A stretch of DNA of 64,000 nt from Acidobacteriota bacterium (GTDB lineage Bacteria; Acidobacteriota; Polarisedimenticolia; Gp22-AA2): positions 6,686-70,685 of the forward strand of contig JBHIBC010000006.1 of the NCBI GenBank assembly GCA_046758905.1, given 5' to 3'. This document shows positions 28,445 through 55,975 of this stretch, piece after piece (the stretch's first letter is position 1; every line of letters begins with the position of its first letter). The notes under the pieces are model-generated. The model was not told the DNA's origin, made no database searches, and saw only the letters and a program-made list of their open reading frames with translations. Position numbers and translations under genes: made by a program.

Positions 28445-28461
28445 CCGGCACGCGCTTTGCG
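28445..28461 (+). promoter_or_regulatory. putative sigma54 promoter
   Basis: CCGGCACGCGCTTTGCG: GG-N10-GC with GGCAC and TTGC elements. Confidence 0.65.
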
Positions 28462-28636
28462 TGCCCGCGCCGCAGGGTCCATAGCCCCGCGGGCGCGAGC
28501 CCGCGAACAGTGCCGGCATTCTGAAAACTACTACAGCACCGCTCAGCGAGCCGGACGGCGGGAGGCGGAAAGCCGCCTGTGGAACCGGGGGATCGGCCCG
28601 CCGCGCCGGGCCCCCCGGCTCGCGCGGGGGCGCGTC

Positions 28637-29872
28637 ATGCGCGACAACCGAGGAGGCCGACGCCGTTCCGCGAGGAGAGGTCCGCTCGTCCTGCTGGCCC
28701 TGGGGCTGGGCACGGCCGCCGCCTACGGCACCAACGCCATACTCTCGGGGTTTCGACAGCACTATCCCACGACGACGATCCCCGACTACACCGTATTGGT
28801 GAGCGGGGACGAGTGCCTCGACTGCCACAGCTCCTCGAAGCGGGCCGATCCCGGCAACGCCTACCGCGAGGACCTGATCGCGACCAAGCTCGACAGAGAG
28901 ATCGACTTCAGCGCGGTGGATTCCCTGGACAGCGACGGCGACGGGGTCCTCAACGCCATCGAGGCGACGCTGCCGCGGGTCGATTTCCCGACCGACATCG
29001 AGGGAGCGCGGCAGGTGGGCTACAACCCCGGGCTCATCGACTGCCCCCCGGACGCGGACGGCGCTCCGAGGCTCGGATACGACCCCGTGTCCATGCGGCA
29101 CATCACCAACGTCCACGAGACCCCGCCCGGCGGGACGGTGTGGTCCAGCGAGATGCCCGGCGCCAACTGCGACGACGGGCTCGACAACGACTGTGACGGC
29201 GTCAGGGACGCCGAGGATCCGGATTGCCTCGCGTCGGGATGCGCGAGCGACGCGGACTGCGACGATGGGCTGTTCTGCAACGGCGGGGAGACCTGCGAGG
29301 CGGGCACCGGTCGGTGTCTCGCGGGGATCCCGCCCGCCGTGGACGACGCGATCGACTGCACCGTGGACTTCTGCGAAGAGGACCTCGACGCGATCGTCCA
29401 CAGCCCGAGCGATGCGCGCTGCGACGACGGGCTGTTCTGCAACGGCGCCGAGATCTGCGACGCGGCCTCGGGCTGCACGGCGGGAACGGCTCCCTGCGCA
29501 CCCGGCGAGGCCTGCGACGAGGAGGAGGACAGATGCGGCGCGGGGGCGCTCGATCTCGACATCGTCGGCTTCCGGGCCCCCCATCGGCTGAGCCTGTCGC
29601 GGCGCGTGCGCGACATCGTCCTGGTGGTGAAGAACGGCGGCGCGGTGGAGGGGACCGCGACGGCCGTCCTGACCAGCGTCAATCCCGACACCGGGGCGAT
29701 GCTCGTCCGGCCGCCGCTGGCCGTCTCCGATCCGGTCGGAGACGGCAGGTCCTCGTTCACCTTCCCCTTCCCGGTGAGCCTGGGCACCGGGACGATCGTC
29801 CACACCGTGACCATCGAGGACGGGGACCCCGATGACGACACGGCGAGCGACATCACGGTCGTGGTCCCGTGA
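28637..29872 (+). CDS. secreted monoheme c protein with Ca-binding DxDxDG motif, Cys-rich repeats and C-terminal Ig-like domain
   Basis: signal peptide; CLDCH; DSDGDG; CDDGLDNDCDG; two CDDGLFCNGxExC repeats. Confidence 0.75.
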   Translation: MRDNRGGRRRSARRGPLVLLALGLGTAAAYGTNAILSGFRQHYPTTTIPDYTVLVSGDECLDCHSSSKRADPGNAYREDLIATKLDREIDFSAVDSLDSDGDGVLNAIEATLPRVDFPTDIEGARQVGYNPGLIDCPPDADGAPRLGYDPVSMRHITNVHETPPGGTVWSSEMPGANCDDGLDNDCDGVRDAEDPDCLASGCASDADCDDGLFCNGGETCEAGTGRCLAGIPPAVDDAIDCTVDFCEEDLDAIVHSPSDARCDDGLFCNGAEICDAASGCTAGTAPCAPGEACDEEEDRCGAGALDLDIVGFRAPHRLSLSRRVRDIVLVVKNGGAVEGTATAVLTSVNPDTGAMLVRPPLAVSDPVGDGRSSFTFPFPVSLGTGTIVHTVTIEDGDPDDDTASDITVVVP

Positions 29873-30029: not shown

Positions 30030-30617
30030 ATGCGGTGTTCCTCGGGCTTATCCGGTCTGGCTTTGCTGTCCACCGTCCTGCTCTCGATGCCGCCGCTCCT
30101 GGCGGCGGAGGGAGCACACTCCTACGTGGGCTCCAAGAAGTGCAAGATGTGCCACATCAGGGAGTGGAAGTCCTGGTCCCAGACGAAGATGGCGAAGGCC
30201 TTCGAGCTGCTCAAGCCGGGGATCCGCGGGGAGCAGAAGGAGGCGGCCGGGCTGGATCCCGCGAAGGACTACACCGCGGATCCGGAATGCGTCTCCTGCC
30301 ATTCCACGGGCTACGGGAAGCCCGGCGGCTTCGTGGATCTCGAGACCACCCCCGACCTCGCCGGCGTCGGGTGCGAGATGTGCCACGGCGCCGGGGGAAC
30401 CTACACGCAAAAACAGTACATGAGCCTGCAGAACAAGAACTACAAGAAGCAGGATCTCGCGGCCGTCGGGCTGGTGGGGACGATCACCGCGCAGACCTGC
30501 CGGGGCCTGTGCCACAACAACAAGAGCCCCTTCGTCGGGGAGGACTACGTCTTCGACTTCGAGGCGAGACGCAACCAGGGCGCTCACGAGCGCTTTCCGC
30601 TGAAATACCAGCATTGA
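30030..30617 (+). CDS. cytochrome c554-like tetraheme cytochrome
   Basis: GGAGG RBS; YVGSKKCKMCH, CVSCHSTG, GVGCEMCHG, atypical CRGLCH. Confidence 0.88.
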   Translation: MRCSSGLSGLALLSTVLLSMPPLLAAEGAHSYVGSKKCKMCHIREWKSWSQTKMAKAFELLKPGIRGEQKEAAGLDPAKDYTADPECVSCHSTGYGKPGGFVDLETTPDLAGVGCEMCHGAGGTYTQKQYMSLQNKNYKKQDLAAVGLVGTITAQTCRGLCHNNKSPFVGEDYVFDFEARRNQGAHERFPLKYQH

Positions 30618-30634
30618 CGACGGCGGGCACGAGG

Positions 30635-31243
30635 GTGGCGGCTTCGGGGGGGGCGCTGTCGGGGCGTCGAGCGTCGCCCGGCCCGCCCGTTCGGGGGGCG
30701 CCCGCCGGAGCCGCCAGGCGCGCGCGCGCGGCCGGAGATCTCGGCACCTCCGGGGCAGGCCTGTCGTCTCTGGTGCTGCTCCTCGTGCTCGCCCCGATCG
30801 CATCCTGCGTCCGGCCCGGAGAGGGCGCGCCTGTGGAGCAGCCGATCGCGTTCAGCCACAGGACCCACGCGGGCGATCACGATATCCCCTGTCTGTACTG
30901 CCACAGGTACGCGGAACGCTCGCCCGTCGCCGGCGTGCCCGCCGTCAACATCTGCATGGGCTGCCACGAGATCATCGGCGCGGACAGTCCGGAGGTCCAG
31001 GAGCTGACCGGGTTCTGGGAGCGGCAGGCGCCCATCGAGTGGATCAAGATCCACGACCTCCCCGACTTCGTTCGCTTCACGCACAAGCGTCACGCGCGCG
31101 CGGGGGTGGGGTGCGAGGAATGCCATGGCCCGGTGCCGACCATGGAACGGATCCAAGCGGTCGGCGAGCTGACCATGGGATGGTGTCTCGAATGCCACAG
31201 GGATCGGGACGCGGAGGACGATTGTCTGATCTGCCATCACTGA
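30635..31243 (+). CDS. actA: alternative complex III pentaheme cytochrome subunit
   Basis: QPIAFSHRTH, five CxxCH, LPDFVRFTH, TMGWCLECH; start uncertain. Confidence 0.88.
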   Translation: MAASGGALSGRRASPGPPVRGAPAGAARRARAAGDLGTSGAGLSSLVLLLVLAPIASCVRPGEGAPVEQPIAFSHRTHAGDHDIPCLYCHRYAERSPVAGVPAVNICMGCHEIIGADSPEVQELTGFWERQAPIEWIKIHDLPDFVRFTHKRHARAGVGCEECHGPVPTMERIQAVGELTMGWCLECHRDRDAEDDCLICHH

Positions 31244-31265: not shown

Positions 31266-34200
31266 ATGAGCTCCGCCATCGACCGGCGAAGCTTCCTGAA
31301 CCTCATGGGCGCGGCGGGGCTCGCCACCTTCACGGGCTGCGGGGGCGAAGCGCCGACCAAGCGGATCGTCCCCCACCTCGTCCAGCCCGAGGGCCTCGTG
31401 CCGGGGGTGACGACCCGGTACGCCTCCGTCTGCGGAGAGTGCCCTGCGGGCTGCGGCATCGTGGTCGCGACCCGCGACGGCAGGCCGATCAAGATCGAGG
31501 GCAATCCGGCTCACCCGAGAAGCCGGGGGGCCCTCTGCGCACGGGGCCAGGCCGCCCTGCAGGGGCTCTACAGCCCCGACAGAGTGAGGCACCCGCTCCG
31601 CAAGCCCGCCCGGGGAGGCTTCGCGAAGACCACCTGGGAGGAGTCGCTCGCCTCCCTGGGGGGAACCCTGCGGGAGCTCGGGAGGGCGGGCTCGCTGGAT
31701 CGGGTCGCGCTCGTGACCCCCCACCTCTCGGGATCGCTCGAGAGACTTGTCCGCATGTGGGTGAGCGAGCACCCCGGCGCGAGCCTTCACCGGCACGAGG
31801 CCATCTCCTACGAGCCGATCGTCAAGGCCGCCGAGATCTGCTTCGGACGAGCCGCGCTCCCGCGCTTCCGGATCGAGGACGCGGATTTGGTGGCATCCTT
31901 CGGCGCCGATTTTCTCGAGACCTGGCTGTCCCCCGTCGAGTATGCCGCCGCCTTCTCCCGCACGCGCGCCTACCGGGAGGGGAAGATCGGGCTGCTGATC
32001 TACATCGGCTCCCGGCACGGGCTCACCGCGGCCAACGCCGACGAGGTCGTCCCGATCAGGCCCGGCACCTGCGGCGCCCTCGCCCTGGGGATCATCAGGG
32101 TGATCCTCGAGGAGCGCCTTCGGAGCCTCCCGGCGCCCGTCGATCGGTCCGCGCTGAACGGTCTCGTCGCACCGTACGACGCGGCGGCGGTGTACCGGAT
32201 CACCGACGTCCCGCCCGACAGGGTGATGAGCCTCGCCCGCCGGATCGCCCGCGCCCCGCGCTGCGTGGCTCTGCCGGGCGGCGTCGAGCACAGCGGCAGC
32301 AACGCGACCGAGAACGCCGTCGCCCTGAACCTTCTCAACTATGTCCTCGGCGCGTTCGGAAGCCTGATAGAGGTCCCCGACGACGGCCCCCTTCCGGCGG
32401 GGCCGGGGCTGAAGGATCTCCCGCGACTCATCGAGAGGATGCGAAGGGGCGAGATCGGGCTCCTCCTCCTGCTCGGTGTGAACCCGGCCTACAGCGTTCC
32501 CGCAGCATCCGGCTTTCTCGAGGGGCTCGAGCGCGTGCGGACCGTCGTCTGCTGCTCCGATGCGTTCAACGAGACCACGGCCGTAAGCGATCTGGTCCTC
32601 CCGATCCATCACCCCCTGGAGGCCTGGGGAGACTCCACGCCGGGAGCGGGCATCTACGGGCTGATGCAGCCCGGGGTGCGTCCTCTGGGGGACTCCAGGC
32701 ATCCCGGCGAGGTGCTCATCGGGATCGCCAGAGCGTCGGGCCTCGGGTCGGGGAAACTCTCCGTCTACGAGACCTACTACGACTTCCTCCTGGACGCCTG
32801 GAGGGAGCTGGCGCAGGCCCGCCACCGGTCGGCGCCCTTCGAGGGCTTCTGGGAGGCCGCCCTGAGACGGGGGGGATGGTTCACCGAGCCGGAGGTCCGG
32901 CCGGTGGCGCTCTCCCCGGACGCGTTCCGGATCCCCTACCGGGAGCCGACGATCGAGGACGCCCCGGGGCCGGACGGCCCGCAGGAGGGGCATGGGGCCC
33001 CCGCCGGGCGCGTCGCCACTCTGATCGTCTACCCGTCGCTCCTGAGGTACGACGGCCGGGGAGCCAACCGGTCGTGGCTGCAGGAGGTCCCGGACCCGGT
33101 GCTCCAGAATGTCTGGGGCAGCTGCGTCGAGGTGTCCACGTCCACCGCCGCCGACATGGGGCTCAGCAGCGGGGACGTGGTCCGGGTCAGCTCGGCCCAC
33201 GGGTCCATCGAGTGTCCGGTCTACGTCTCCGGCCTGGTCTACTCCGGCGCGGTGGCGCTCGCGCTGGGGCAGGGGCACAGGGGCTACGGCCGCGGCGCGG
33301 ACGGGGCCGGGGTGAACGCCCTGGACCTGCTGCCGCTGTCCCAGGACGAGCTGTCCGGGGGGCAGGCCTACCTGAGGGTGAAGGTCCGCCTGCAGAAGAC
33401 CGGCAGGGTGGAGACCATTCCGACCCCTCAGGGCCACCCCTACGACGAGGGCCGGGGCGTCGTCCGGAGCATCAGTCTCGCCTCCATGGTGGAGCTGACG
33501 AGCGGGCGGAGGGGGCGACCCGGCGATGCGGAGCACGGGTTCAGGGACCTCCTGGAGCCGCACGAGCACCCGAAGCACCGATGGGGCATGGCGATCGACC
33601 TGAACGCCTGCATCGGGTGCAGCGCCTGCGTGGTCGCCTGCTACGCCGAGAACAACATCCCCGTCGTCGGCAAGGAGCAGTTTCGGATCGGCCGGGAGAT
33701 GGCGTGGATCCGGATCGAGAGGTTTCTCCGCGAGGATCGCCCGGGAGACACGCGCTTCCTGCCGATGCTCTGCCAGCAGTGCGAGAACGCTCCCTGCGAG
33801 CCGGTCTGCCCGGTCTACGCCACCTACCACACCGAGGAGGGCCTGAACGCGCAGGTCTACAACCGGTGCGTCGGGACGCGGTACTGCGCCAACAACTGCC
33901 CCTACAGCGCGCGGCGGTTCAACTGGTTCAGCTTCCGGTTCCCCGAGCCCCTCAACCTCCAGCTCAACCCCGACGTGACGGTTCGCTCCAAGGGCGTGAT
34001 GGAGAAGTGCACCTTCTGCGTCCAGAGGATCGTCCTGGCGAAGGATCGGGCCAAGGATCAGGACCGGGACGTGAAGGACGGCGAGATCGTGCCGGCGTGC
34101 GCCCAGACCTGCCCGACGAAGGCGATCACCTTCGGCGACCTGAAGGACCCCGACAGCCTGGTATCGAGGAAGACGCGCGACCCCCGGGGCTACAGGGTGT

Positions 34201-34271
34201 TCGAGCACCTCAACACCAAGCCGGCGATCACATACCTGAAGAAGATAACCGCAGGTGACGGACTTGTCTGA
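31266..34271 (+). CDS. actB: alternative complex III subunit B (molybdopterin-oxidoreductase-like domain + Fe-S domain)
   Basis: Tat signal DRRSFL with lipobox Cys; GRPIKIEGNP; CIGCSACVVAC, CQQCENAPC, CVGTRYCANNCP, KGVMEKCTFC. Confidence 0.93.
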   Translation: MSSAIDRRSFLNLMGAAGLATFTGCGGEAPTKRIVPHLVQPEGLVPGVTTRYASVCGECPAGCGIVVATRDGRPIKIEGNPAHPRSRGALCARGQAALQGLYSPDRVRHPLRKPARGGFAKTTWEESLASLGGTLRELGRAGSLDRVALVTPHLSGSLERLVRMWVSEHPGASLHRHEAISYEPIVKAAEICFGRAALPRFRIEDADLVASFGADFLETWLSPVEYAAAFSRTRAYREGKIGLLIYIGSRHGLTAANADEVVPIRPGTCGALALGIIRVILEERLRSLPAPVDRSALNGLVAPYDAAAVYRITDVPPDRVMSLARRIARAPRCVALPGGVEHSGSNATENAVALNLLNYVLGAFGSLIEVPDDGPLPAGPGLKDLPRLIERMRRGEIGLLLLLGVNPAYSVPAASGFLEGLERVRTVVCCSDAFNETTAVSDLVLPIHHPLEAWGDSTPGAGIYGLMQPGVRPLGDSRHPGEVLIGIARASGLGSGKLSVYETYYDFLLDAWRELAQARHRSAPFEGFWEAALRRGGWFTEPEVRPVALSPDAFRIPYREPTIEDAPGPDGPQEGHGAPAGRVATLIVYPSLLRYDGRGANRSWLQEVPDPVLQNVWGSCVEVSTSTAADMGLSSGDVVRVSSAHGSIECPVYVSGLVYSGAVALALGQGHRGYGRGADGAGVNALDLLPLSQDELSGGQAYLRVKVRLQKTGRVETIPTPQGHPYDEGRGVVRSISLASMVELTSGRRGRPGDAEHGFRDLLEPHEHPKHRWGMAIDLNACIGCSACVVACYAENNIPVVGKEQFRIGREMAWIRIERFLREDRPGDTRFLPMLCQQCENAPCEPVCPVYATYHTEEGLNAQVYNRCVGTRYCANNCPYSARRFNWFSFRFPEPLNLQLNPDVTVRSKGVMEKCTFCVQRIVLAKDRAKDQDRDVKDGEIVPACAQTCPTKAITFGDLKDPDSLVSRKTRDPRGYRVFEHLNTKPAITYLKKITAGDGLV

Positions 34272-35598
34272 GCCGCTCCGGCCGGAGCTGACGTACGGGG
34301 AGGTCAACGCCGAGCTGATGCGCACCATCCGGGCGCCCGGACCGGCCTACTACGCCGGGCTGCTCGCGACCCTCGCGGGGTGTCTCATCGGCGCCTACTC
34401 GTGGTGGACGCAGATCTACTACGGCATGGGCGTCACGGGGCTGAACAATCCGGTCGGATGGGGGATCTACATCACGAATTTCGTCTTCTGGGTGGGGATC
34501 GCGCACTCCGGCACCCTGGTCTCGGCCATACTCTTTCTCCTGCGGGCGAAGTGGCGCACCGCGATCTATCGCAGCGCCGAGGCGATGACCGTGTTCGCCG
34601 TCCTGACGGCGGGGCTCTTCCCCCTCATCCACCTCGGTCGGGTGTGGCGCTTCTACTACCTGCTGCCCTACCCGAACGAGAGGCTGCTGTTCCCGAATTT
34701 CCGCTCGCCGCTCTGCTGGGACGTCTTCGCCGTGGTGACCTATCTCACGGTCAGCAGCATGTTCCTCTATCTCGGGATGATCCCCGACCTGGCCGCCTAC
34801 AGGGACCACCACACGGGCTGGAGGAGAAGGCTGTACGGGATCCTGTCCCTACGCTGGAGGGGATCCGGTGAGCAGTGGAGGCACTACTCCAGCGCCTACG
34901 CCTTCTTCGCCGCCCTCGCCACGCCGCTGGTCATCTCGGTCCACAGCATCGTCTCGTGGGACTTCGCCATGTCGGTCCTTCCCGGGTGGCACAGCACCAT
35001 CTTCGCGCCCTATTTCGTCGCGGGCGCCATCCACTCCGGACTCTGCATGGTGATCATCATCCTGATCCCCCTGCGGAGGATGTTCAAGCTCAAGGCGTTC
35101 ATCTCGATCGACCACTTCGAGAACATCGCCAAGCTCATCATCCTGACCGGGATGATCGTCGGCTACGCGTACCTCACGGAGATGGGCATCGCCTGGTACA
35201 GCGCCAACGATTTCGAGCAGGACGTCTTCCTGTACCGCCTGTTCGGGCACTACGCGCCGTTCATGTGGATGATGCTGGTCTTCAACGCGGTGCTTCCCCT
35301 GACCTTCTTCATCCGGAGCGTGAGGAGGAACTTGTTCTGTCTCTTCCTGATCGCGGTGCTGGTCAACATCGGGATGTGGTCGGAGCGGTTCGTGATCGTG
35401 ATCACGTCGCTCGGCCATGCGTTCGATCCCTTCGCGTGGGGGGAGTACCGCATGACCTGGGTCGAGGCGGGGATCACCATCGGCTCCTTCAGCTGGTTCT
35501 TCCTGCTCTTCCTGATCTTCATCAAGATGTTCCCCTGCGTCTCGATCACGGAGATGAAGGAGGCGCTCCCCCGGCCCGCGGGAGCGAGGACGGTCTGA
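34255..35598 (+). CDS. actC: alternative complex III NrfD-like quinol-binding subunit
   Basis: NFVFWVGIAHSGTLVSA, RSAEAMT, HLGR, SVHSIVSWDF, GWHSTIF. Confidence 0.94.
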   Translation: MTDLSEPLRPELTYGEVNAELMRTIRAPGPAYYAGLLATLAGCLIGAYSWWTQIYYGMGVTGLNNPVGWGIYITNFVFWVGIAHSGTLVSAILFLLRAKWRTAIYRSAEAMTVFAVLTAGLFPLIHLGRVWRFYYLLPYPNERLLFPNFRSPLCWDVFAVVTYLTVSSMFLYLGMIPDLAAYRDHHTGWRRRLYGILSLRWRGSGEQWRHYSSAYAFFAALATPLVISVHSIVSWDFAMSVLPGWHSTIFAPYFVAGAIHSGLCMVIIILIPLRRMFKLKAFISIDHFENIAKLIILTGMIVGYAYLTEMGIAWYSANDFEQDVFLYRLFGHYAPFMWMMLVFNAVLPLTFFIRSVRRNLFCLFLIAVLVNIGMWSERFVIVITSLGHAFDPFAWGEYRMTWVEAGITIGSFSWFFLLFLIFIKMFPCVSITEMKEALPRPAGARTV

Positions 35599-35601: not shown

Positions 35602-36105
35602 ATGAGGCACGCCGGCGTGCTGGGGATCTTCGACGACTTCGACTCCTTCATCCGGGCGCTGAAGGAGCTCAAGGGCATGGAGCCCGACAGGATCGTCACC
35701 TACACCCCGATCCCCTGCCACGAGGTCGCCGAGGCGCTGGACCTGCGGCCGAGCCCCATGCGGTACTTCACCCTGGCCGGCGGGCTGCTCGGCTTCGCCG
35801 CGGGCGCCGCGCTGACGATCTACTGTCCGCTGGCCTATCCCCTGGTCGTGGGCGGAAAGCCGCTGATCTCCGTTCCGCCCTATCTGATCATCGCCTTCGA
35901 GCTGACGATCCTGTTCGCGACGATCGTCAGCGCGATCGGGTTCTTCGTGCTGTCCCCGTTCCGCGAGCCGGGCGCCGCACGAGCCTACGATCCGGGGTTC
36001 TCCGAGGACCGCTTCGGCGTGCTCGTCGCGAGCCGCCGGCTCGGCGCCTCGCGTCTAGAGGATGTGCTGAACCGACATGGGGCGGTGCAGACGCGTATCC
36101 AGTAG
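35602..36105 (+). CDS. actD: alternative complex III subunit D (DUF3341)
   Basis: TYTPIP, VGGKP, FELTIL, YDPGFSEDRF. Confidence 0.9.
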   Translation: MRHAGVLGIFDDFDSFIRALKELKGMEPDRIVTYTPIPCHEVAEALDLRPSPMRYFTLAGGLLGFAAGAALTIYCPLAYPLVVGGKPLISVPPYLIIAFELTILFATIVSAIGFFVLSPFREPGAARAYDPGFSEDRFGVLVASRRLGASRLEDVLNRHGAVQTRIQ

Positions 36106-36592
36106 GGCGCCCGTCCGCGCGGCGTTGCTCGGCGCGGCGTTGCTCGGCGCGGCGCTGATCGCCGGCTGCGGGCCGCCGGAGGGCTGGCCCTGGAGGCGGA
36201 ACATGTTCGATTTCCCCGGGCCGCGCCCGCAGGAGGAGGCCCGGCGGCCCCCGGAGCACGTCCTGGCCGCGGACGGGACGGCCCGCGGCCCGGCGCCCGG
36301 CGCGGCGGGCAGGGGCGGGGCGCGAGGGTCCGTGGAGAGGGGGAAGGTGCTCTTCGAGCGGTACTGCTCGGTCTGTCACGGCCCCCTGGGGACCGGGAGG
36401 GAGCTCACCGAGGACTACCCGACGCCGGATCTGACCGAGGAGGACTACCTGCTGCGATCGGATGGCGACATCTACGCGGTGATCGTGGACGGCGGGCTCA
36501 ACATGCCGAGCTACCGAGATGCGCTCACGGAGCCCGACCGCTGGCTCGTGATCCGCTACCTGAGGACGCTGCAGAGATCCCATGCGAAGTGA
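36077..36592 (+). CDS. actE: alternative complex III monoheme cytochrome lipoprotein
   Basis: lipobox IAGC; RGKVLFERYCSVCHG; MPSY; start uncertain. Confidence 0.85.
   Translation: MGRCRRVSSRAPVRAALLGAALLGAALIAGCGPPEGWPWRRNMFDFPGPRPQEEARRPPEHVLAADGTARGPAPGAAGRGGARGSVERGKVLFERYCSVCHGPLGTGRELTEDYPTPDLTEEDYLLRSDGDIYAVIVDGGLNMPSYRDALTEPDRWLVIRYLRTLQRSHAK
36117..36157 (+). repeat. 15-bp tandem repeat (~2.7 copies) in the actE signal peptide
   Basis: GCGCGGCGTTGCTCG twice plus a partial copy; encodes AALLG AALLG AALI. Confidence 0.7.
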
Positions 36593-46440: not shown

Positions 46441-46883
46441 TGGCTGGGGAGCGGCCGGGGGGCTCGCGGCGCGGCTTTCTGAACTGGTTTCTCGGGACGT
46501 CGTTGGGCGCGATGTGCGCGTCGATCCTGTACCCGGTGGCGCGCTACATCTCGCCGCCGGAGGTGCCGGAGGCGGCGACCTCCAGGGTCGTGGCCGGGCG
46601 GGTCGGGGAGCTGAAGCCGAACGAGGGGAAGCTGTTCCGCTTCGGGAGCCGGCCCGGCCTGCTGATCCTCACCCGCGAGGGCGAGTACAGGGCCTACGCC
46701 GCGACCTGCACCCACCTCAACTGCACCGTCCAGTTCCGCGGCGATCTGCAGCAGATCTGGTGCGCCTGCCACAACGGCTTCTACGACCTGAACGGCGTCA
46801 ACGTAGCCGGCCCACCGCCGCGCCCGCTCGAGAGGTACGCGGTGCACGTCGCGGACGACGAGGTGGTGGTGACCAGGACATGA
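46440..46883 (+). CDS. Rieske [2Fe-2S] protein (copy 1)
   Basis: Tat-like SRRGFL; CTHLNC and CACHNGFY; GPPPRPL. Confidence 0.93.
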
Positions 46884-47996: not shown

Positions 47997-49274
47997 ATGC
48001 GACGGGCGCCGCTGATTCTCGGAGGGATCGCCCTGGCGGGCCTGATCGCCTTCGCCGAGGAGCCGCCGCCGGGGGAGCGATCCAAGGTCAACAGCTGCCT
48101 GTCGTGCCACTCCGAGTTCGACGGCGAGCTCCTGGAGCCGACCCTGCACGTCGAGGAGGACGTCCACTTCAAGCGCGGGCTGGCCTGCCATGACTGCCAC
48201 GGCGGCGACCCGTCAGCCGGCCTGGACGGCGACCCCGACGAGGCGCACAGCGCCGCCGAGGGGTTCGCGGGCAAGCCGAGCCGCCTCGACACGCCGCGGT
48301 TCTGCGCCCGGTGCCACTCGGACGCCAACCTCATGAAGGCGTTCAATCCCCACGCCCGCGTGGACCAGTGGAGCGAGTACCGGACCTCCAGGCACGGGCG
48401 GCGCCTCGACAGCGGGGACGACAGCGTGGCGGTGTGCACCGACTGCCACGGGGCGCACGGCATCCGCGAGGTCGACGACCCCCGCTCGCCCGTCTACCCG
48501 ACCAACGTGGCCGAGACCTGCGCCGCCTGCCACGCGGACTCCGAGCGGATGGGTCCGCACGGCCTGCCGACGGGGCAGTACCGGGAATACCGCCGAAGCG
48601 CTCACGCCGCGGCGCTGTACGAGAAGGGCGACACCTCGGCCCCGACCTGCAACGACTGTCACGGCAGCCACGGCGCCGTCCCCCCGGGCGTCGAGAACGT
48701 CAGCAACGTCTGCGGCAGCTGCCACGGGCGCGAGGCGACGCTGTTCCGCGAGATCGAGGAGAAGAAGGACATCAACGTCTCCGCCTGCATCCAGTGCATG
48801 ATCTGCCACGACAACCACGCGGTGCTCCGGCCGACCGACGACATGATCGGCGTCGGAGAGAGGTCGACCTGCACCGCCTGTCATGCTGAGGGCGAGCCCG
48901 CCTACGACGCTGTGGCCCGGATGGGGGGCGCCGTCGTCCGCCTGGCGGGCCGTCTCGAGGAGGCGAACGCGCTGCTCGACGCCGCCGAGCGCGCCGGGAT
49001 GGAGGTGGGGCCGGACCGATTCGCGCTGCAGAAGGCGCGGGACCGGCTGGTCGAGGCGCGCGTGCTGGCGCACAGCTTCGACCTCGAGCGTTTCCTGAAG
49101 GTGACGGCCGAAGGGCTGGAGGCGGCCGACGCCGGCGTGGCGGCCGGCCACCGCGCGTTCGCCGACCTGAGGTTCAGGCGCACCGGGCTGGCCCTGTCGC
49201 TCATCGTCATCGCGGCGGTGATCGTGGCGCTGTGGCTGAAGATCCGGCAGATCGAGGCGCGAACCGCGGAGTGA
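47997..49274 (+). CDS. nonaheme cytochrome c with C-terminal coiled region and TM anchor (copy 1)
   Basis: 9 CxxCH; C-terminal hydrophobic helix. Confidence 0.88.
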   Translation: MRRAPLILGGIALAGLIAFAEEPPPGERSKVNSCLSCHSEFDGELLEPTLHVEEDVHFKRGLACHDCHGGDPSAGLDGDPDEAHSAAEGFAGKPSRLDTPRFCARCHSDANLMKAFNPHARVDQWSEYRTSRHGRRLDSGDDSVAVCTDCHGAHGIREVDDPRSPVYPTNVAETCAACHADSERMGPHGLPTGQYREYRRSAHAAALYEKGDTSAPTCNDCHGSHGAVPPGVENVSNVCGSCHGREATLFREIEEKKDINVSACIQCMICHDNHAVLRPTDDMIGVGERSTCTACHAEGEPAYDAVARMGGAVVRLAGRLEEANALLDAAERAGMEVGPDRFALQKARDRLVEARVLAHSFDLERFLKVTAEGLEAADAGVAAGHRAFADLRFRRTGLALSLIVIAAVIVALWLKIRQIEARTAE

Positions 49275-51442
49275 GGTCCAGATCCCGAGCCGATGCGGCG
49301 CGATCGCTCTTGGCGCTGCTGATGCTGGCGGTGCCGGCCGCCGGCCGGGCGCAGGACGGGGAGGATTGTCTGGCCTGCCACGCCGGGCCGGATCCGACGA
49401 TGCGGCGGGGCGGACGGACCGTCCGGCTCCAGGTGGACCGTGCGGTCCTCGGCCGGTCGGTGCACCGGGATCTCCCGTGCGTCGAGTGCCACGCCCGGCT
49501 GAGCCCGGACGCCCTCCCGCACGCCTCCCCGATGGAGCCGGTCGACTGCAGCGGCTGCCATGGCGACGTCACCGGCACGCACCGCTTCCACCGCCCCGCG
49601 GCCCGGGGTCCAGGCTCCTCGTCCGCCTGCGCCGACTGCCACGGCGCACACGACATCCTGCCGCCGGGAGAGCCGGGCTCGCGACTTCACCCCTCCCGTC
49701 TCGTGGAGACGTGCGGCGACTGCCACCCCGAGGTCGCGGCGCGGTACGCCGATTCCGAGCACGGCCGGCAGTTCGCGGCCGGCGTAACGGGAGCGCCGAG
49801 CTGCGTGGACTGCCACGACCGCCCGATCGTCGAGGCCCGCAGGGGGGGCACCATGGCGGAGCACAAGCTCGTCCAGGAGAGGCTCTGCCTCTCGTGCCAC
49901 CTCGACGACCCCCGGGTCCGGGCCCGCGTGTCGCCCGGCGCGGGCTTCATCTCCGCCTACGAGGACAGCGTCCACGGCAGGGCCCTGGCGGAGGGGAACG
50001 GCGCCGCGGCCAACTGCGTCGACTGCCACGGCAGCCACGAGATGAAGAAGGGGTTCGAGCCGACCGCCCGCGTCAACAAGCGGCACATTCAAAGGACCTG
50101 CGGCGGCTGTCACGCGGCGATCGCCGAAAAGTACGCGGCGAGCGTGCACGGCGTGGCTCTCGCCCGGGGCGAGCACGAATCCCCGGTCTGCACGGACTGC
50201 CACGGCGAGCACGCCATACTGCGGCACCTCGATCCCCGATCTCCGGTGGCGCCCGCGAACGTCTCGGTGCAGGTCTGCTCTCCCTGCCACAGCTCGCTGC
50301 GGCTCGCGGCGAAGTACGGCATCGCCTCCGACCGCTTCAAGACCTTCTCCGACAGCTTCCACGGCCTGGCGATCCGAGGCGGCATGGTCGAGGTCGCCAA
50401 CTGCGCCAGCTGTCACGGCTCGCACGACATCCGGCCCTCCTCCGATCCGGCGTCGAGCATCCACCCGCTGAACCTGAGGGCCACCTGCGGTCGGTGTCAC
50501 CCGGGCGCGGGCAGGCGGTTCGCGGAGGGGACGGTCCACCTCCAGGTGAGCGAGGAGCGGGAGCCGGTCCTCTACTGGATCGCCACCGCCTACGCCGGCC
50601 TGATCGTGGTGGTCATCGGCGGGATGTCCGTCCACAACCTGCTGGACTTCGTCCGGAAGGCGCGCCGGCGGCTGAGGATCCGGCGGGGGCTGGAGCCCGG
50701 GGAGCCGGTCGGTCGGGCCCTCTACCTCCGAATGACCCTCGGCGAGCGACTGCAGCACGGCGCGCTGGTCGGGAGCTTCGCGGTGCTGGTCGTCACCGGC
50801 TTCATGCTGCATTACCCCGACGCCTGGTGGGTGAGGGCCCTGGGTCGACTCAGCGACGAGCCGTTCGACTTGCGCGGCCTCCTGCACCGGATCGCCGGAG
50901 TCGTCATGGTCGGCGCGTCCCTGTACCACGTCACGTACCTGGTGTTCTCGGATCGCGGCCGTCGGTTCCTGCGCGACATCCTGCCGCGGCGCGGCGACCT
51001 GTCCGACGCCGCCGCGGCCCTGCGGTTCAACCTCGGACTGAGCGGGCGCGGCCCGCGCTTCGGGCGGTTCGGGTACGTCGAGAAGAGCGAGTACTGGGCT
51101 CTGGTGTGGGGGAGCGTCCTGATGACGCTGACCGGGATGGTGCTGTGGTTCGAGGAGATCTCCATCGGGCTGCTCACCAAGCTCGGGTGGGAGATCTCCC
51201 GCATCGTCCACTTCTACGAGGCCTGGCTGGCCGCGCTGGCCGTTCTGGTCTGGCACCTCTATCACGTCATCCTGAGCCCGGACGCCTACCCTATGAACGT
51301 CTCCTGGCTCAGCGGCACCCTCAGCGAGGCGGAGATGGCCGCGGAGCACCCGCTGGAGCTGGAGGCGATCCGGGCCCGGCGGGCGGCGGACCCGGGCGCG
51401 GCGCGGCCGACCGCGGGGCGCCGGAGCCCGGAACGGACCTAG
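49271..51442 (+). CDS. CbcL-like protein: 13-heme periplasmic domain fused to FdnI/HydC-type cytochrome b
   Basis: GTG at 49271 overlapping upstream stop; 13 CxxCH; ERLQH, LLHRIAG, EKSEYWALVWG, HFYEAWLA, WHLYHV, EHPLE. Confidence 0.88.
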   Translation: MRSRSRADAARSLLALLMLAVPAAGRAQDGEDCLACHAGPDPTMRRGGRTVRLQVDRAVLGRSVHRDLPCVECHARLSPDALPHASPMEPVDCSGCHGDVTGTHRFHRPAARGPGSSSACADCHGAHDILPPGEPGSRLHPSRLVETCGDCHPEVAARYADSEHGRQFAAGVTGAPSCVDCHDRPIVEARRGGTMAEHKLVQERLCLSCHLDDPRVRARVSPGAGFISAYEDSVHGRALAEGNGAAANCVDCHGSHEMKKGFEPTARVNKRHIQRTCGGCHAAIAEKYAASVHGVALARGEHESPVCTDCHGEHAILRHLDPRSPVAPANVSVQVCSPCHSSLRLAAKYGIASDRFKTFSDSFHGLAIRGGMVEVANCASCHGSHDIRPSSDPASSIHPLNLRATCGRCHPGAGRRFAEGTVHLQVSEEREPVLYWIATAYAGLIVVVIGGMSVHNLLDFVRKARRRLRIRRGLEPGEPVGRALYLRMTLGERLQHGALVGSFAVLVVTGFMLHYPDAWWVRALGRLSDEPFDLRGLLHRIAGVVMVGASLYHVTYLVFSDRGRRFLRDILPRRGDLSDAAAALRFNLGLSGRGPRFGRFGYVEKSEYWALVWGSVLMTLTGMVLWFEEISIGLLTKLGWEISRIVHFYEAWLAALAVLVWHLYHVILSPDAYPMNVSWLSGTLSEAEMAAEHPLELEAIRARRAADPGAARPTAGRRSPERT

Positions 51443-51455: not shown

Positions 51456-51914
51456 ATGCAAGAAGGTCTACGGTCGGAGGGGGAGGGCACCGCGAGGCGG
51501 CGGACGGCCCTGCGCTGGCTGATCCGCGGGTTCCTGTCGCTGTGGGGCCTGGGCGGGGCGTTTCTGGGACTGTCTTTCCTCAGGGCCCCCTCGGCCGAGC
51601 GGCGCCCGAGCGAGAGGCTGGTGCGCTGCGGGCCCGTCTCGACGCTGCCGGTGGGCGGCGCGCGCTTCGTGCGCCACGGGACGCGGCCCCTGTTCGTCCT
51701 GCGCGTCTCGGAGAGCGAAGTGCTGGCGCTGTCCGCCATCTGCACGCACCTGCGCTGCGTGCTTCGGTGGGACCGGGACAGCCAGACGCTCGTCTGCCCG
51801 TGCCACTCGGGGGCCTTCGACCGCGGCGGCAACGTCCTCTCCGGGCCGACGAAGCGCCCGCTGCCGCGCTACGAGGCCGAGGTGCGGGCGGACGAGATCG
51901 TGGTGCGGACATAA
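51456..51914 (+). CDS. Rieske [2Fe-2S] protein (copy 2)
   Basis: RRRTAL N-terminus; CTHLRC and CPCHSGAF; GPTKRPL. Confidence 0.92.
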   Translation: MQEGLRSEGEGTARRRTALRWLIRGFLSLWGLGGAFLGLSFLRAPSAERRPSERLVRCGPVSTLPVGGARFVRHGTRPLFVLRVSESEVLALSAICTHLRCVLRWDRDSQTLVCPCHSGAFDRGGNVLSGPTKRPLPRYEAEVRADEIVVRT

Positions 51915-51927
51915 GGGACGGCCGACC

Positions 51928-53067
51928 GTGGGACGCGCACCGGGACGGGGCATCGCTCGCTCGCTGCTCGGGTGGCTCGAGCAGCGGTTCAACCTGACGG
52001 AGATGTTCTCCTTCCTGACCAGCTTCGGCCTGTTCCCCGCCGAGCTGGACACCCGGCGGCCGCTTCGCGAATCCATCGACGCGGCGCTGCGAAGACCGCT
52101 GCCCTCCTACGCGCGCTGGCCGCGGGTTCTGGGGATCCTGTCTTTCCTGCTGTTCCTCTTCCTCGGGCTCACGGGCGCGATGCTCTCCTTCTATTACCAG
52201 CCGACGGCCTCGGAGGCCTACGGGTCGGTCACCGGGATCGTCAGGGACGTCCGGTTCGGCTGGCTCGTGCACCAGTCCCACCGGTGGGCGGCGCACCTGT
52301 TCCTGCTCATCCTGCTGGTGCGGGTCGCGCGATTCTACTTCCAGGGCCTGTACAGGAAGCCGCGCGAGGCCCTCTGGGTCCTCGCCGTCCTGACGCTGCT
52401 CGTCGCCACCCACGCCGACCTGACCGGCCGCCTCCTGGCGTGGGACGCGCGGGGATACTGGACCACGGTCCGCGCCCTGGAGGTCCTCTACTCCCTGCCG
52501 ATCCTGGGCCCGGCCTTCTCCTACCTCATGGGGAGCGCCACGGTCGACTCGCTGGTGCTGACCCGCTTCTACGTCCTGCACGCCGCGGCCCTGCCGGTGA
52601 TGCTCGGGATCCTGTTCTACTTGCACTTCTCGGGGGTCCGCCGGGTGGGCCTCTCGCCGGCCACCGGCGAGACCCGGTCGGGGCCGGCGGTGCTCCGGGT
52701 CCACCTCTACAATGTCGTGATCCTCGCGGTTCTCCTGTTCGGCACGGTGATCACCCTGGCGATGGCCCTCCCCGCCCCTTTCGAGCCTCCCGCCGACCCC
52801 CTGAGCACCCCGCCGGGCATCCACCCGCCCTGGTACCTGCTCGCCCCGCACGCCCTGCTGGAGTCGCTGCCCCCGATCCTGCCGCGGCCGGTCGGCGGTC
52901 TGCTGCTTGAGCTGATCCTCGCCGCCTTCCTTCTGCTCCCGTTCCTGGACCGTTCCCCCTGGCGGCCGGCGCGCTCGCGCCGCGCGGCACTGGCGCTCAG
53001 CGCCCTGGCCGTCCTCGCCGTCCTCCTGCTGACCCTCTACGGATACCGACTGGAGGTGGCGCGATGA
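51928..53067 (+). CDS. divergent cytochrome b (copy 2), lacking one heme ligand and PEWY
   Basis: YYQPT..EAY.SV, GWLV, TRFYVLH; second helix-B His replaced by Arg; PPWY. Confidence 0.88.
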   Translation: MGRAPGRGIARSLLGWLEQRFNLTEMFSFLTSFGLFPAELDTRRPLRESIDAALRRPLPSYARWPRVLGILSFLLFLFLGLTGAMLSFYYQPTASEAYGSVTGIVRDVRFGWLVHQSHRWAAHLFLLILLVRVARFYFQGLYRKPREALWVLAVLTLLVATHADLTGRLLAWDARGYWTTVRALEVLYSLPILGPAFSYLMGSATVDSLVLTRFYVLHAAALPVMLGILFYLHFSGVRRVGLSPATGETRSGPAVLRVHLYNVVILAVLLFGTVITLAMALPAPFEPPADPLSTPPGIHPPWYLLAPHALLESLPPILPRPVGGLLLELILAAFLLLPFLDRSPWRPARSRRAALALSALAVLAVLLLTLYGYRLEVAR

Positions 53068-54242
53068 TCGCCTGGGCGTTGCTGCTGGCGGCCGCCGCGG
53101 CCGGCCCTTCCGCCGCCTGCACGCTCTGCCATCCCGCGGTCCGGGTCGAGTTCGAGCAGGGCGTCCATCGCCGGGAAGGGGTCACCTGCGTCTCCTGCCA
53201 CGGCGGCGACCCGGGCGCGGTGTCCGTCGAGGCGGCGCACCGGGGCGCCTTCCGCGGCGTGCCGCGGCGCCGCGACATCCCGAAGCTGTGCGCCTCGTGC
53301 CACGCGGACATCGCCCTGATGCGCCCGTACAACCTGCCGGCGGATCAGTACGCCCTCTACGAGACCTCGCGCCACGGCCTGCTGCTCGCGCAGGGCAACG
53401 AGCGGGTCGCGGTGTGCACCGATTGTCACGGGGCGCACGAGATCCGCCGGCCCGACGATCCCAGAAGCAGCGTCTTCCGCCGCAACATCCCGCGGACCTG
53501 CGCCCGCTGCCACGCCGACCCGTCGCGCATGGGAGGCACCGGGCCGCGGGACGACCCCTACCGGGACTACGCCGAGGGCGTGCACGGCCGGGCCTTCCTG
53601 ACGCGGGACAACCTCTCGGCCCCCGACTGCTCCTCCTGCCACGGCGCCCACGGCGCCGCGCCGCCCGGCTTCGGGGACATCGACAAGGTGTGCGGCCAGT
53701 GTCACGCCACGACCCGGGCCTATTTCCTGGAAGGCCCGCACTACGCGGCCATGCGGGAGGCCGGCCTGCCCGAGTGCGCCTCCTGCCACGACCATCACCG
53801 GATCGGGCCGGCCGACCTGTCGGCGCTGGACTCGGCCTGCGTGGCCTGCCACGAGGAGGGCTCGGACCAGCTGGAGGTGGCCGCCGCCATGCGGACGCTG
53901 TTCACCGCGGCGGCCGAGGAGATCGACAGGGCGCGAGCCCTGGTGGAGCGCGCCGCCGCCATCCCCCTCTACGTGGGGGACTACGAGGCCGGCCTCGAGG
54001 ACGCCCGGACGGCCCTGATGGAGTCCTTCCCGGTGATGCACTCGCTCGACGTGCAGCGCGTCCAGGACTTCACGCTGCGGGCGCGCTCGATCGCGACCGC
54101 GATCCAGTCGGAGATCGAGGGCAAGCTCGAGGGCCGCGCGTGGCGGCGGGTCGGGCTGATGCTCTTCTGGTTCTACCTGCTGCTGACGGTCGCGATCCTC
54201 GTCCGCTTCCGCCGGCGCGCGGCGGCGGAGGCCCTCCGGTGA
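53064..54242 (+). CDS. nonaheme cytochrome c with C-terminal TM anchor (copy 2)
   Basis: 9 CxxCH collinear with 47997..49274 (CHGGDP, AVCTDCHGAH, HGA.PPG). Confidence 0.88.
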   Translation: MIAWALLLAAAAAGPSAACTLCHPAVRVEFEQGVHRREGVTCVSCHGGDPGAVSVEAAHRGAFRGVPRRRDIPKLCASCHADIALMRPYNLPADQYALYETSRHGLLLAQGNERVAVCTDCHGAHEIRRPDDPRSSVFRRNIPRTCARCHADPSRMGGTGPRDDPYRDYAEGVHGRAFLTRDNLSAPDCSSCHGAHGAAPPGFGDIDKVCGQCHATTRAYFLEGPHYAAMREAGLPECASCHDHHRIGPADLSALDSACVACHEEGSDQLEVAAAMRTLFTAAAEEIDRARALVERAAAIPLYVGDYEAGLEDARTALMESFPVMHSLDVQRVQDFTLRARSIATAIQSEIEGKLEGRAWRRVGLMLFWFYLLLTVAILVRFRRRAAAEALR

Positions 54243-55975
54243 CACCCGGCGGCGGGCCGGGCCGGCTGCGCGCGCTCCTGCGGAGCGGCTCGCTCAGGAT
54301 GATGGGGCTGAGCGTGGGGCTGGCCGCGGGGCTGGCGCTGGTGGCGGCGGGGACCGCCATGGAGGTGAGCAGCCGGCCCGCCTTCTGCGGCTCCTGCCAC
54401 GTCATGACGCCCTACTACGAGTCGTGGAGGGCGTCGACGCACCGCAACGTCGCCTGCGTGGAGTGCCACATCCCGCCGGGCATCACCGCCGAGCTCCGGA
54501 AGAAGTACGAGGCGCTGGCGATGGTGGCCCGCTACTTCACGGGGACTTACGGGACCAACCCCTGGGCCGAGATCGACGACGCCGCCTGCCTGAGGTGCCA
54601 CGAGCGCAGGCTGCTGAGGGGGCGAGAGCTGTTCGGCGACGTCCTCTTCGACCACTCGGCCCACCTGGCGGGCATGCGCCGCGGCAAGACCCTGCGCTGC
54701 ACCTCCTGCCACTCGCAGATCGTCCAGGGGAGCCACATCACCGTCACCGCCTCCACCTGCATCCTGTGCCACTTCAAGGGGCGGGAATCCGGGACCGGGA
54801 CCGCCCGCTGCACCCTGTGTCACGACGTTCCGGACGCGGAGATCCGGCGCGGGACGCCCACCTTCAGCCACGCCGACGTGGCGCGCTACGGCATGGACTG
54901 CACCTGGTGTCACGCCCGTCCCGAGGGGAGCGACGGCGACGTGCCGCGGGAGCGCTGCCTCACCTGCCACAACGAGCCGGCGCACCTGGCGGAGTACGGG
55001 CGCGCGGCGCTCCTGCACCGAACCCACGTCAGCGAGCACAAGGTCGACTGCATGAACTGCCACCTGGAGATCCGGCACGTGGGGGAGCCCCGGATCGAGC
55101 GCGCCGTGAGCGCCTGCGGCTCCTGCCATCGCGCCGGGCACTCGCCGCAGCTGATGCTCTACAGCGGGATCGGCGGCAGGGGCCTGCAGCCGATGCCGAG
55201 CCCCATGTTCCTGGCGGGAGTGCGCTGCGAAGGGTGCCACATCGCGCTGCCCGGCCGGGAGTCGGAGGTCCACCGCGCCGACGAGGTCTCCTGCATGTCC
55301 TGTCACGGGCCGGGCTACCTGCCGATCTACGAGACCTGGAAGAGGGGCGTCGCGGCGCGCGCCGGCGCGCTGCGGCGGCAGATGGAGCGCACCCGACGGA
55401 GGCTGGACGGCGCGGCCCCGGCCCGGCTCGCCGACGCGCTGTTCAACCTGGAACTGGTGACGCGCGGGCGGGGCGTGCACAACGTCGACTACTCGTTCGC
55501 GCTGCTGGAGAAGGCCCGCGCCGACATGAACGCGGCGCGCGAGTCGGCCGGCCTCTCCGCTCTGCCGCGCCCCTGGCCGGAGGCCGCCGTGGAGTCGCCC
55601 TGCCTGCGCTGCCACCAGGGGATCGAATCCGGCCGGGGGAGGTTCCTCGACCGGGCCTTCCGGCACGACGTGCACCTCGCGCGGGCGCGTCTCGAGTGCG
55701 CGGCGTGCCACCGCCCGCACGAGGAGCGTCCCCCCGGCGAGGTGGTGCGGTTCGGCGCCGGGGGCTGCGCCTCGTGCCACCACCGCGATCCGGCGGCGGC
55801 CTGCGCCCCCTGCCATGCCGGGGTCCGGAGGGGGACGGTGCCGAGCCCGCTGGGGCCGTTCGACCACGCCTTCCACCTCGACGAGATGGAGCTGGACTGC
55901 GGCGGCTGCCACCTGCCGGGACCGGGAGGGAGGCCGCGCCTCGACCGGGAGATCTGCGCCAGCTGTCACGGCTGA
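54239..55975 (+). CDS. NapC/NirT-domain 18-heme cytochrome c
   Basis: GTG at 54239; N-terminal TM helix, SSRPAFCGSCHVM..YY.SW..S.H..V.CVECH; 18 CxxCH. Confidence 0.88.
   Translation: MTPGGGPGRLRALLRSGSLRMMGLSVGLAAGLALVAAGTAMEVSSRPAFCGSCHVMTPYYESWRASTHRNVACVECHIPPGITAELRKKYEALAMVARYFTGTYGTNPWAEIDDAACLRCHERRLLRGRELFGDVLFDHSAHLAGMRRGKTLRCTSCHSQIVQGSHITVTASTCILCHFKGRESGTGTARCTLCHDVPDAEIRRGTPTFSHADVARYGMDCTWCHARPEGSDGDVPRERCLTCHNEPAHLAEYGRAALLHRTHVSEHKVDCMNCHLEIRHVGEPRIERAVSACGSCHRAGHSPQLMLYSGIGGRGLQPMPSPMFLAGVRCEGCHIALPGRESEVHRADEVSCMSCHGPGYLPIYETWKRGVAARAGALRRQMERTRRRLDGAAPARLADALFNLELVTRGRGVHNVDYSFALLEKARADMNAARESAGLSALPRPWPEAAVESPCLRCHQGIESGRGRFLDRAFRHDVHLARARLECAACHRPHEERPPGEVVRFGAGGCASCHHRDPAAACAPCHAGVRRGTVPSPLGPFDHAFHLDEMELDCGGCHLPGPGGRPRLDREICASCHG

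Follow-up and report, generated by a model that had tools for sequence, protein, structure and literature searches.

The window analysed here, 64,000 nucleotides of contig JBHIBC010000006.1 from an Acidobacteriota bacterium (GenBank assembly GCA_046758905.1), contains an island of 23 consecutive genes, all on the plus strand and without interruption from 28.6 to 56.0 kb, that encodes a concentration of multihaem cytochromes and quinone-interacting membrane complexes (Table 1). Genes were called by third-position G+C and homology in this sequence of ~72% G+C, and they fall into three modules: an operon for alternative complex III (ACIII) with two further haem proteins (module 1, 28.6–37.8 kb), an OmcE-type nanowire cluster (module 2, 38.1–45.7 kb), and a nine-gene operon of quinol interfaces (module 3, 45.9–56.0 kb). 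No unrelated gene separates the modules, the strand is common to all three, and a convergent minus-strand gene starts directly after position 55975. We consider it probable that these three adjacent and co-directional operons, each preceded by a sigma54-type site, together connect the quinone pool with the exterior of the cell.

The island carries 87 CxxCH motifs (69 in the first 21 called genes and 18 in the last gene) and two CxxxCH motifs, one in the c554-like gene g2 and one in the 12-haem gene g13, which is exactly the hand count of the first-pass annotation of this DNA. That annotation listed 22 genes; the number is 23, since the open reading frame (ORF) at 46514–47995 is two genes in different frames, a Rieske gene (46440–46883) followed by a cytochrome b gene (46880–47995). 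Its component names (ACIII, OmcE-type, barrel, twin Rieske/cytochrome b, CbcL-like and NapC/NirT-like) were upheld by homology tests, and so was its statement that the island has no terminal oxidase or recognizable soluble reductase: Pfam and NCBIfam revealed no terminal oxidase or known soluble reductase domain among the 23 products, which also contain no CxxCK motif. NCBIfam gave no equivalog-level name for any of the 10 island proteins tried. The host genome (2.9 Mb in 134 contigs, 98.5% complete) has 25 ORFs with at least three CxxCH motifs, together holding 156 motifs; the island accounts for 10 of these ORFs and 85 of the motifs, and every ORF of the genome with at least nine motifs lies within it. 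The host, which had been guessed to be a probable acidobacterium outside Geobacter, belongs to Acidobacteriota and not to Geobacterales by its matches: all five named loci retrieved with the barrel profile come from Acidobacteriota metagenome-assembled genomes, one of them labelled Terriglobia, and named homologues of g10, g11 and g13 are mostly from the same phylum. The window contains no tRNA and no member of an Rfam family, and thus gives no sign of an integrative element. Between 36.8 and 56.7 kb, neither terminators nor sigma70 promoters rose above chance.

Table 1. Genes and sigma54-type sites of the island, with positions in the window and supporting matches
Feature	Position	Strand	Evidence
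Sigma54-type -24/-12 site before module 1	28446..28460	+	cGGCAC-N5-TTGC, 1 mismatch
g1, secreted 411-aa Cys-rich monohaem protein	28637..29872	+	1 CxxCH; DUF5801 22.9 bits, below cut-off
g2, periplasmic c554-family tetrahaem cytochrome	30030..30617	+	PF13435 E 9.9e-25; PDB 1bvb E 1.1e-26
ActA, pentahaem, N-terminal membrane anchor	30635..31243	+	5 CxxCH
ActB, molybdopterin-like + 4Fe-4S, Tat-type N-terminus	31266..34271	+	PF04879, PF00384, PF01568, PF12838, PF13247
ActC, NrfD-type quinol-binding membrane subunit	34255..35598	+	PF03916 E 1.4e-26; 10 hydrophobic segments
ActD	35602..36105	+	PF11821 E 5.6e-40
ActE, monohaem lipoprotein	36077..36592	+	1 CxxCH; LIAGC lipobox read by eye
ActF, second NrfD-like membrane subunit	36582..37817	+	PF03916 E 9.7e-05, below cut-off; paralogous to ActC
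Sigma54-type site before module 2	38002..38016	+	aGGCAC-N5-TTGCA, 1 mismatch
g9, NHL-repeat six-bladed beta-propeller, first scaffold protein	38110..39276	+	PF01436 E 1.1e-28
g10, OmcE-type tetrahaem nanowire subunit (putative), 235 aa, signal peptide	39360..40067	+	7tfs_A E 1.7e-39
g11, large outer-membrane beta-barrel, 580 aa, unnamed family	40154..41896	+	AF2 pLDDT 82.2
g12, NHL-repeat beta-propeller lipoprotein	41909..43006	+	PF01436 E 1.4e-32; LAGLAC lipobox read by eye
g13, 12-haem cytochrome, 591 aa	43003..44778	+	7tfs_A E 2.5e-31; 11 CxxCH + 1 CxxxCH
g14, 9-haem MtrA/DmsE-like cytochrome, 306 aa, candidate barrel insert	44768..45688	+	6r2q_A E 6e-12
Sigma54-type site before module 3	45839..45853	+	TGGCAC-N5-TcGCA, 1 mismatch
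g15, second periplasmic c554-family tetrahaem cytochrome	45889..46440	+	PF13435 E 2.7e-17; 1bvb E 6.3e-09
Rieske 2Fe-2S protein 1	46440..46883	+	PF00355 E 1.3e-11; PetC anchor
Cytochrome b 1, fused b6/subunit IV type	46880..47995	+	PF00033 E 6.7e-50; PF00032
g17, nonahaem cytochrome, C-terminal membrane helix, in place of cytochrome c1	47997..49274	+	
g18, CbcL/MtoC/MtrH-type, 13 CxxCH	49271..51442 (start 49232 or 49271)	+	PF01292 E 4.3e-16
Rieske 2Fe-2S protein 2	51456..51914	+	PF00355 E 1.8e-14
Cytochrome b 2	51928..53067	+	PF00033 E 8e-34; PF00032
g21, second nonahaem cytochrome, C-terminal membrane helix	53064..54242	+	37% identical to g17
g22, 18-haem membrane-anchored NapC/NirT (NrfH/CymA)-type	54299..55975	+	PF03264 E 2.6e-12

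The link to the cell exterior would be module 2, and within it g10. This protein matches Geobacter sulfurreducens OmcE (7tfs_A) over its full length (chain residues 9–232 of 232) and Desulfuromonas soudanensis OmcE (9yuq_N) with an E value of 5.1e-31. Its CxxCH motifs at residues 57, 109, 204 and 229 are in register with those of 7TFS, and its four distal histidines (in KH, TPH, NDH and DPH) align with those of the same structure. Homology, haem ligands and cluster context together mark g10 as an OmcE-type protein, for which filament formation is predicted. A second OmcE homologue of the host genome, 79% identical to g10, lies on contig C62 (L065:2333-3064) and stands alone, with no barrel, propeller or multihaem neighbours. 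Beside it are two ORFs matching consecutive parts of DUF3179, possibly one frameshifted gene, and a 947-aa protein with MopE-type metal-binding motifs and a beta-helix.

Module 2 has the gene content of the omcE cluster of Desulfuromonadia (Petersen et al. 2026, PMC13712944; PDB 7TFS, 9YUQ), whose minimal form comprises two multihaem cytochromes, two beta-propeller lipoproteins, OmcE and a large barrel; judged by the gene content that the available text of the paper reports, it is a cluster of this canonical six-gene type. It differs in that one accessory cytochrome carries a whole OmcE-like domain, a contrast drawn against the paper's description, and in that no glycosylation gene block follows. 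The portions of the paper used here list OmcE homologues with such a context in five phyla, Acidobacteriota not among them, report no anchor- or tip-like OmcE relative encoded in the operons examined, and explicitly leave open how the nanowires are anchored and supplied with electrons (PMC13712944). A module of OmcE type in Acidobacteriota is nevertheless not new, because conserved syntenic porin–scaffold–cytochrome clusters, named EET1, have already been described from peat Acidobacteriota (Fiorito et al. 2026 preprint, 10.64898/2026.05.27.727921). EET1 combines a porin, a scaffold, and OmcE-like and MtrA-like cytochromes of 8–13 haems, as module 2 does, and its architecture, compared by text description, is likely of the same general kind; its OmcE-like multihaem protein may be of the g13 type. 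The passages of the preprint drawn on here contain 0 mentions each of ACIII and CbcL and describe no adjacent inner-membrane modules. The gene order of module 2 is kept in the acidobacterial loci L009, L010, L012, L013 and G105, in each of which an orthologue of g9 occupies the same position, and is partly kept in L006 and L011 (G285:C9, seemingly the same stretch as L013, was counted once).

The second unusual component of module 2 is g13. Its residues ~21–208 form a complete OmcE-like tetrahaem domain in which all ligands are kept, and an octahaem extension follows. An alignment of the N-terminal domain with g10 spans 211 positions at 41% identity (E 4e-37), and the OmcE-like N-terminus is present in the orthologues of all six loci that reach the gene. 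The family is large, with 7889 of 8000 scored candidates at an E value of 1e-10 or better, and the 120 relatives among the matches listed are all at least 50% identical. The commonest phyla of the full-length structural neighbours in the protein Atlas are Nitrospirota, Planctomycetota, Acidobacteriota, Verrucomicrobiota and Pseudomonadota. An Atlas neighbour whose commonest phylum is Thermodesulfobacteriota covers residues 210–591 only, that is, the octahaem part, and is a lead rather than a test.

The protein encoded at 40.2 kb, g11, had been called a beta-barrel from its sequence, and structure prediction bears this out: the AlphaFold2 (AF2) model (pLDDT 82) has a signal helix followed by 29 strand elements, corresponding to ~28 strands, and its Foldseek matches are solely large outer-membrane barrels, namely the FimD usher, TonB-dependent transporters, LptD and MtrB (TMq 0.43). 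The protein-atlas model gave TM values of 0.60/0.50 against the MtrB/PioB family. No Pfam, NCBIfam or PDB sequence match was found for g11, and no MtrB/PioB (PF11854) signature. At the level of these models, large barrels all match one another as well as they match g11, such that the fold cannot tell a cytochrome sheath from a pore. Alternatively, g11 could be an usher-like secretion pore or anchor that exports OmcE subunits and mounts the filament, with electrons arriving by another route. The authors of the 2026 OmcE paper suggest a secretion pore or anchor for the barrel (PMC13712944), the FimD usher is the top Foldseek match of g11 (E 8.8e-10), and g11 is without sequence similarity to MtrB/PioB. 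We think it rather unlikely that this is how g11 works: the MtrA-like nonahaem protein g14 (6r2q_A, E 6e-12) is kept in the window cluster and in three of the loci that reach its position (L009, L010 and G105), and the fold of g11 matches MtrB as well (TMq 0.43; TM 0.60), though fold does not discriminate. As in MtrCAB and other porin–cytochrome conduits (6R2Q), genes for an MtrA-like protein, a large barrel and an outward multihaem protein lie side by side here. The likeness has limits, in that the MtrB-like fold of g11 comes without the MtrB/PioB sequence signature, g14 has 9 haems (9 CxxCH) rather than the 10 of MtrA and scores 90.4 bits against a cut-off of 192.2 for the DmsE family (TIGR03508), and the outer partner is an OmcE-type and not an MtrC-type protein. 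By its similarity to 6r2q_A, g14 might act like MtrA without being a member of the MtrA/DmsE family.

Module 3 would supply most of the inner-membrane interfaces. Both of its Rieske/cytochrome b pairs are confirmed, and each is followed by a nonahaem protein, without a cytochrome c1. Unlike the quinol oxidases of Geobacter, g18 and g22 share their operon with two Rieske/cytochrome b complexes; in Geobacter, genes of the CbcL/ImcH type are dispersed. g18 combines its multihaem part with a HydC/FdnI-like cytochrome b domain (residues 500–681), with 5 hydrophobic segments in a crude hydropathy scan. This is the architecture of the CbcL/MtoC/MtrH family as defined in the sections of PMC6295460 used here, an N-terminal multihaem c region with 3–23 CxxCH motifs joined to a HydC/FdnI-like cytochrome b of ~six helices; Geobacter CbcL has 9 haems against 13 in g18, a number within the family's range. 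The same sections describe ImcH as having three N-terminal membrane helices, ~seven CxxCH motifs and an atypical CX3CH (PMC6295460). g22 is unlike ImcH, with one N-terminal segment, 18 CxxCH motifs and no CxxxCH, and instead has the type of anchor and first haems found in the NapC/NirT family (CymA, NrfH; PMC6295460), with a score of 61.6 bits against TIGR03153 that is below the cut-off. Two genomes from a different family of the class, G324 (58–71% identity) and G219 (59–73%), retain the operon with every one of its nine genes, and the same-family genome G011 has a six-gene form (61–70%). Our literature search, whose coverage excluded subscription journals, found no description of module 3 or of the whole three-module combination, and module 3 is apparently undescribed. 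In several g18 homologues from other genomes, among them that at G011:C51:12243-14432, one in-frame TGA or TAG lies inside the matched region, which could reflect a sequencing error, a gene boundary or recoding.

Module 1 encodes all six ACIII subunits, their order canonical and their domains and haem counts as expected, and by these features is a canonical ActABCDEF operon joined to a c554-like tetrahaem cytochrome and a Cys-rich monohaem protein. The latter, g1, has two acidic Cys-rich repeats of the CDDGLFCNG type and an Ig-like C-terminus; g2 has three CxxCH motifs and one CxxxCH, its signal peptide and start having been read by eye. The ActABCDEF order is the same in the four nearest ACIII operons of class relatives, which, unlike the island, lack homologues of g1 and g2. 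No oxidase genes adjoin the island copy. A second ACIII is encoded on contig C82 of the same genome, and sequence comparison makes the island enzyme a divergent paralogue. Both g2 and g15 belong to the family of Nitrosomonas cytochrome c554 (1BVB; E values in Table 1), although neither comes near the NCBIfam equivalog cut-off (g2 reaches 109 bits of the 400 required) and no hydroxylamine oxidoreductase is encoded near either. They are most simply read as periplasmic shuttles. Both had also been considered as the OmcE-type gene, and were rejected as members of the c554 family; the OmcE homologue is g10.

Evidence that the three modules may be regulated alike comes from the spacers. Scored against the sigma54 consensus TGGCAC-N5-TTGC, with GG/GC kept in all three cases, the sites of Table 1 lie 190, 108 and 50 nt before the first genes of modules 1, 2 and 3. 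They are the best plus-strand matches of the island and fall in its only three sizeable spacers, in agreement with the earlier reading that each module starts with a sigma54-like promoter; promoter function is putative. Counted across the window, such sites do not exceed the chance level, with 34 found against 41.6 expected at up to two mismatches and 4 found against 2.2 ± 1.5 simulated at up to one. Three of these 4 are in the ~840 nt of correctly oriented spacer among 128,000 strand positions, and each of the four genomes carrying module 3 has a matching site ahead of its c554 gene, at -48 to -59. The weight of the argument lies in this placement and in the conservation at module 3, not in raw counts. 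The genome has rpoN together with 18 strong domains of sigma54 activators. Downstream of the module 2 sigma54-like site and ahead of the first NHL start codon there is also a perfect CRP-type palindrome, TGTGAAACATTTCACA (38080–38095), with one other match at up to one mismatch in the window against 0.54 expected. It could be a candidate operator for a regulator of the CRP/FNR family.

Whether the modules form one unit was examined in 401 Acidobacteriota genomes, the host genome (G000) included. The barrel profile matched 6 of them, 4 strongly, the 18-haem protein 60, and the CbcL-like protein 198, mostly via its C-terminal half. Several results weigh against a joint quinone-to-exterior route. 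The three modules are not a conserved unit, and modules 2 and 3 spread separately: no genome of the sample beyond G000 has a strong barrel match together with an 18-haem match, and the weak barrel matches and 18-haem matches of G049 and G082 are on different contigs. No homologue of ACIII, Rieske/cytochrome b, CbcL or NapC was found in 80 kb (G285) and 60 kb (G105) around module 2, and module 3 occurs in G324, G219 and G011 without any barrel being found. In G324, the 50 kb around the 10-kb module 3 (~27 kb upstream and ~13 kb downstream) contain no ACIII gene and no gene of the OmcE module. In 60 further genomes of the class, the island ActB also has no close orthologue, its best match being 44–45% identical. 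The module 2 site is weakly kept, with up to one mismatch in two of six distinct loci (the window and L012) and up to two mismatches in three of the six, and no sigma54 activator is encoded in the window. The AF2 model of g13 is poor, with a mean pLDDT of 57 and values below 50 in the N-terminal domain (55-sequence alignment). Finally, two full haem-copper oxidases are encoded elsewhere in the genome, and ACIII and the bc-type complexes could feed oxygen respiration.

These observations raise the possibility that the modules are coincidental neighbours, with module 2 as the only extracellular device and with ACIII and module 3 as periplasm-facing complexes that feed oxidases or soluble acceptors. 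The independent distribution of the modules in relatives, the promoter-like site that each has of its own, the two oxidases, and the retention of module 3 as a unit in genomes where no barrel of an OmcE cluster was found are all points in its favour. We nonetheless regard coincidence as improbable. A further ACIII is encoded in the genome, and contig C44 carries a third Rieske/cytochrome b pair (about 8–20 kb), ~9 kb from a gene for haem-copper oxidase subunit I, in what is probably an ordinary aerobic chain; with these sets in place, the island complexes are surplus to such a chain. Chains of 9, 13 and 18 haems would be unnecessary for reaching a soluble acceptor, and the island encodes no periplasmic reductase. 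Moreover, an unusual promoter type and a strand are common to all three units, with no unrelated gene between them. We infer that the modules are functionally coupled from their position side by side on one strand, their shared promoter type and the way the parts fit together. Between the Rieske/cytochrome b pair and the oxidase gene of C44 lies a 994-aa ORF with 8 CxxCH motifs.

Among the genomes examined, the juxtaposition of the three modules is specific to this one. The view of the island as a self-contained system of extracellular electron transfer is not supported, given the separate distribution of its modules and the oxidases, second ACIII and third Rieske/cytochrome b pair encoded elsewhere, and the novelty claimed for the conduit was overstated, since module 2 is a published cluster type (PMC13712944, in the text available) with acidobacterial counterparts in the preprint (10.64898/2026.05.27.727921, in the passages used). 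Apparently new are three features: the juxtaposition, a module 3 operon whose sigma54 site is conserved, and the fusion of an OmcE-like domain into g13, which makes this protein a candidate for the base of the filament. The island extends known systems and overturns no current understanding.

In the route that we favour, the inner membrane would present five quinol/quinone interfaces, namely ACIII, two Rieske/cytochrome b complexes in which the anchored nonahaem cytochromes g17 and g21 replace cytochrome c1, the CbcL-type protein and the NapC/NirT-type protein. Quinol would be oxidized by all of these, and the electrons would pass to the c554-like shuttles g2 and g15, which are likely soluble in the periplasm. 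The outer membrane would be crossed through MtrA-like g14 inside the ~28-strand barrel of g11, from which electrons would move to g13 and then to the OmcE filament. In this reading, g13 would dock on the outside by its octahaem part and its N-terminal OmcE-like domain would be the base for polymerization of g10, with the two NHL propellers serving as assembly scaffolds.

The first-pass annotation cautioned that the direction of flow cannot be read from sequence, and this caution holds, as the sequence has no directional signature. We mildly favour outward flow, in which a facultative heterotroph would respire insoluble Fe(III)/Mn(IV) or organic matter, because the 98.5%-complete genome yielded no RuBisCO (other CO2 fixation routes not having been searched), the flanks look heterotrophic (sugar/ABC transport, dehydrogenases, pyruvate:ferredoxin oxidoreductase and phosphoenolpyruvate (PEP) carboxykinase), and OmcE has been tied experimentally to Fe(III) oxide reduction in Geobacter, as the available text of PMC12307469 relates. 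Alternatively, the electron source may be Fe(II)/Mn(II) minerals, a partner cell or reduced organic matter, with electrons running inwards through the OmcE filament and conduit to c554 and on to proteins of the NapC/NirT and CbcL types, which would reduce quinone, while ACIII and Rieske/cytochrome b would work partly in reverse and the oxidases would be the downhill sink. The pairing of c554, a homology computed here, with a NapC/NirT-type protein mirrors the c554 route of ammonia oxidizers. In those organisms, electrons pass from c554 to cM552 and then to quinone. ACIII is likewise named in the literature on neutrophilic iron oxidizers, in which a role for it has been proposed, and with two haem-copper oxidases in the genome oxygen remains a possible sink. 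In addition, homologues of CbcL/MtoC/MtrH and of CymA occur in Fe(II) oxidizers as well as reducers according to the sections of PMC6295460 used here. For these reasons we keep uptake open, as a somewhat unlikely alternative to the outward flow that the RuBisCO result, the flanks and the Geobacter role of OmcE favour.

A more far-reaching reading, which we offer tentatively and judge unlikely to hold in full, joins two proposals: that g13, as the covalent fusion of an OmcE protomer with an octahaem module, forms the base of the filament, and that module 3 is an undescribed sigma54-controlled respiratory operon belonging to this acidobacterial class. g13 could take the first protomer position and wire the OmcE filament to the barrel-embedded nonahaem protein, the fused form being perhaps abundant in uncultured Acidobacteriota, Planctomycetota, Nitrospirota and Verrucomicrobiota, and module 3 could bundle four quinol interfaces (two Rieske/cytochrome b–nonahaem complexes, the CbcL-type and the NapC-type protein) that were brought beside the wire in this genome to serve a wide range of acceptor potentials. 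If true, the g13 fusion would explain the nucleation, anchoring and electrical feeding of cytochrome nanowires. Such nanowires have been structurally solved in few organisms. The island is a compact natural example outside Desulfuromonadia, in which the wire cluster lies directly between candidate inner-membrane feeders, and g13, as a conserved accessory cytochrome with a whole OmcE-like domain, is a concrete and testable candidate for the filament base. Module 3, in turn, could mark respiratory versatility in Acidobacteriota, a phylum abundant in soils and peat, habitats whose carbon turnover may be influenced by extracellular electron transfer.

Upstream of the island, the window encodes a di-haem protein resembling cytochrome c peroxidase/MauG (10525–12687, plus strand, 2 CxxCH) and a 991-aa hybrid histidine kinase with GAF, PAS and receiver domains (13000–15975, minus strand). 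Downstream, at 57619–63999, are genes that include the markers named in the first-pass annotation: pyruvate:ferredoxin oxidoreductase (1235 aa), a dihydroorotate-dehydrogenase-like protein and a GTP-dependent PEP carboxykinase.

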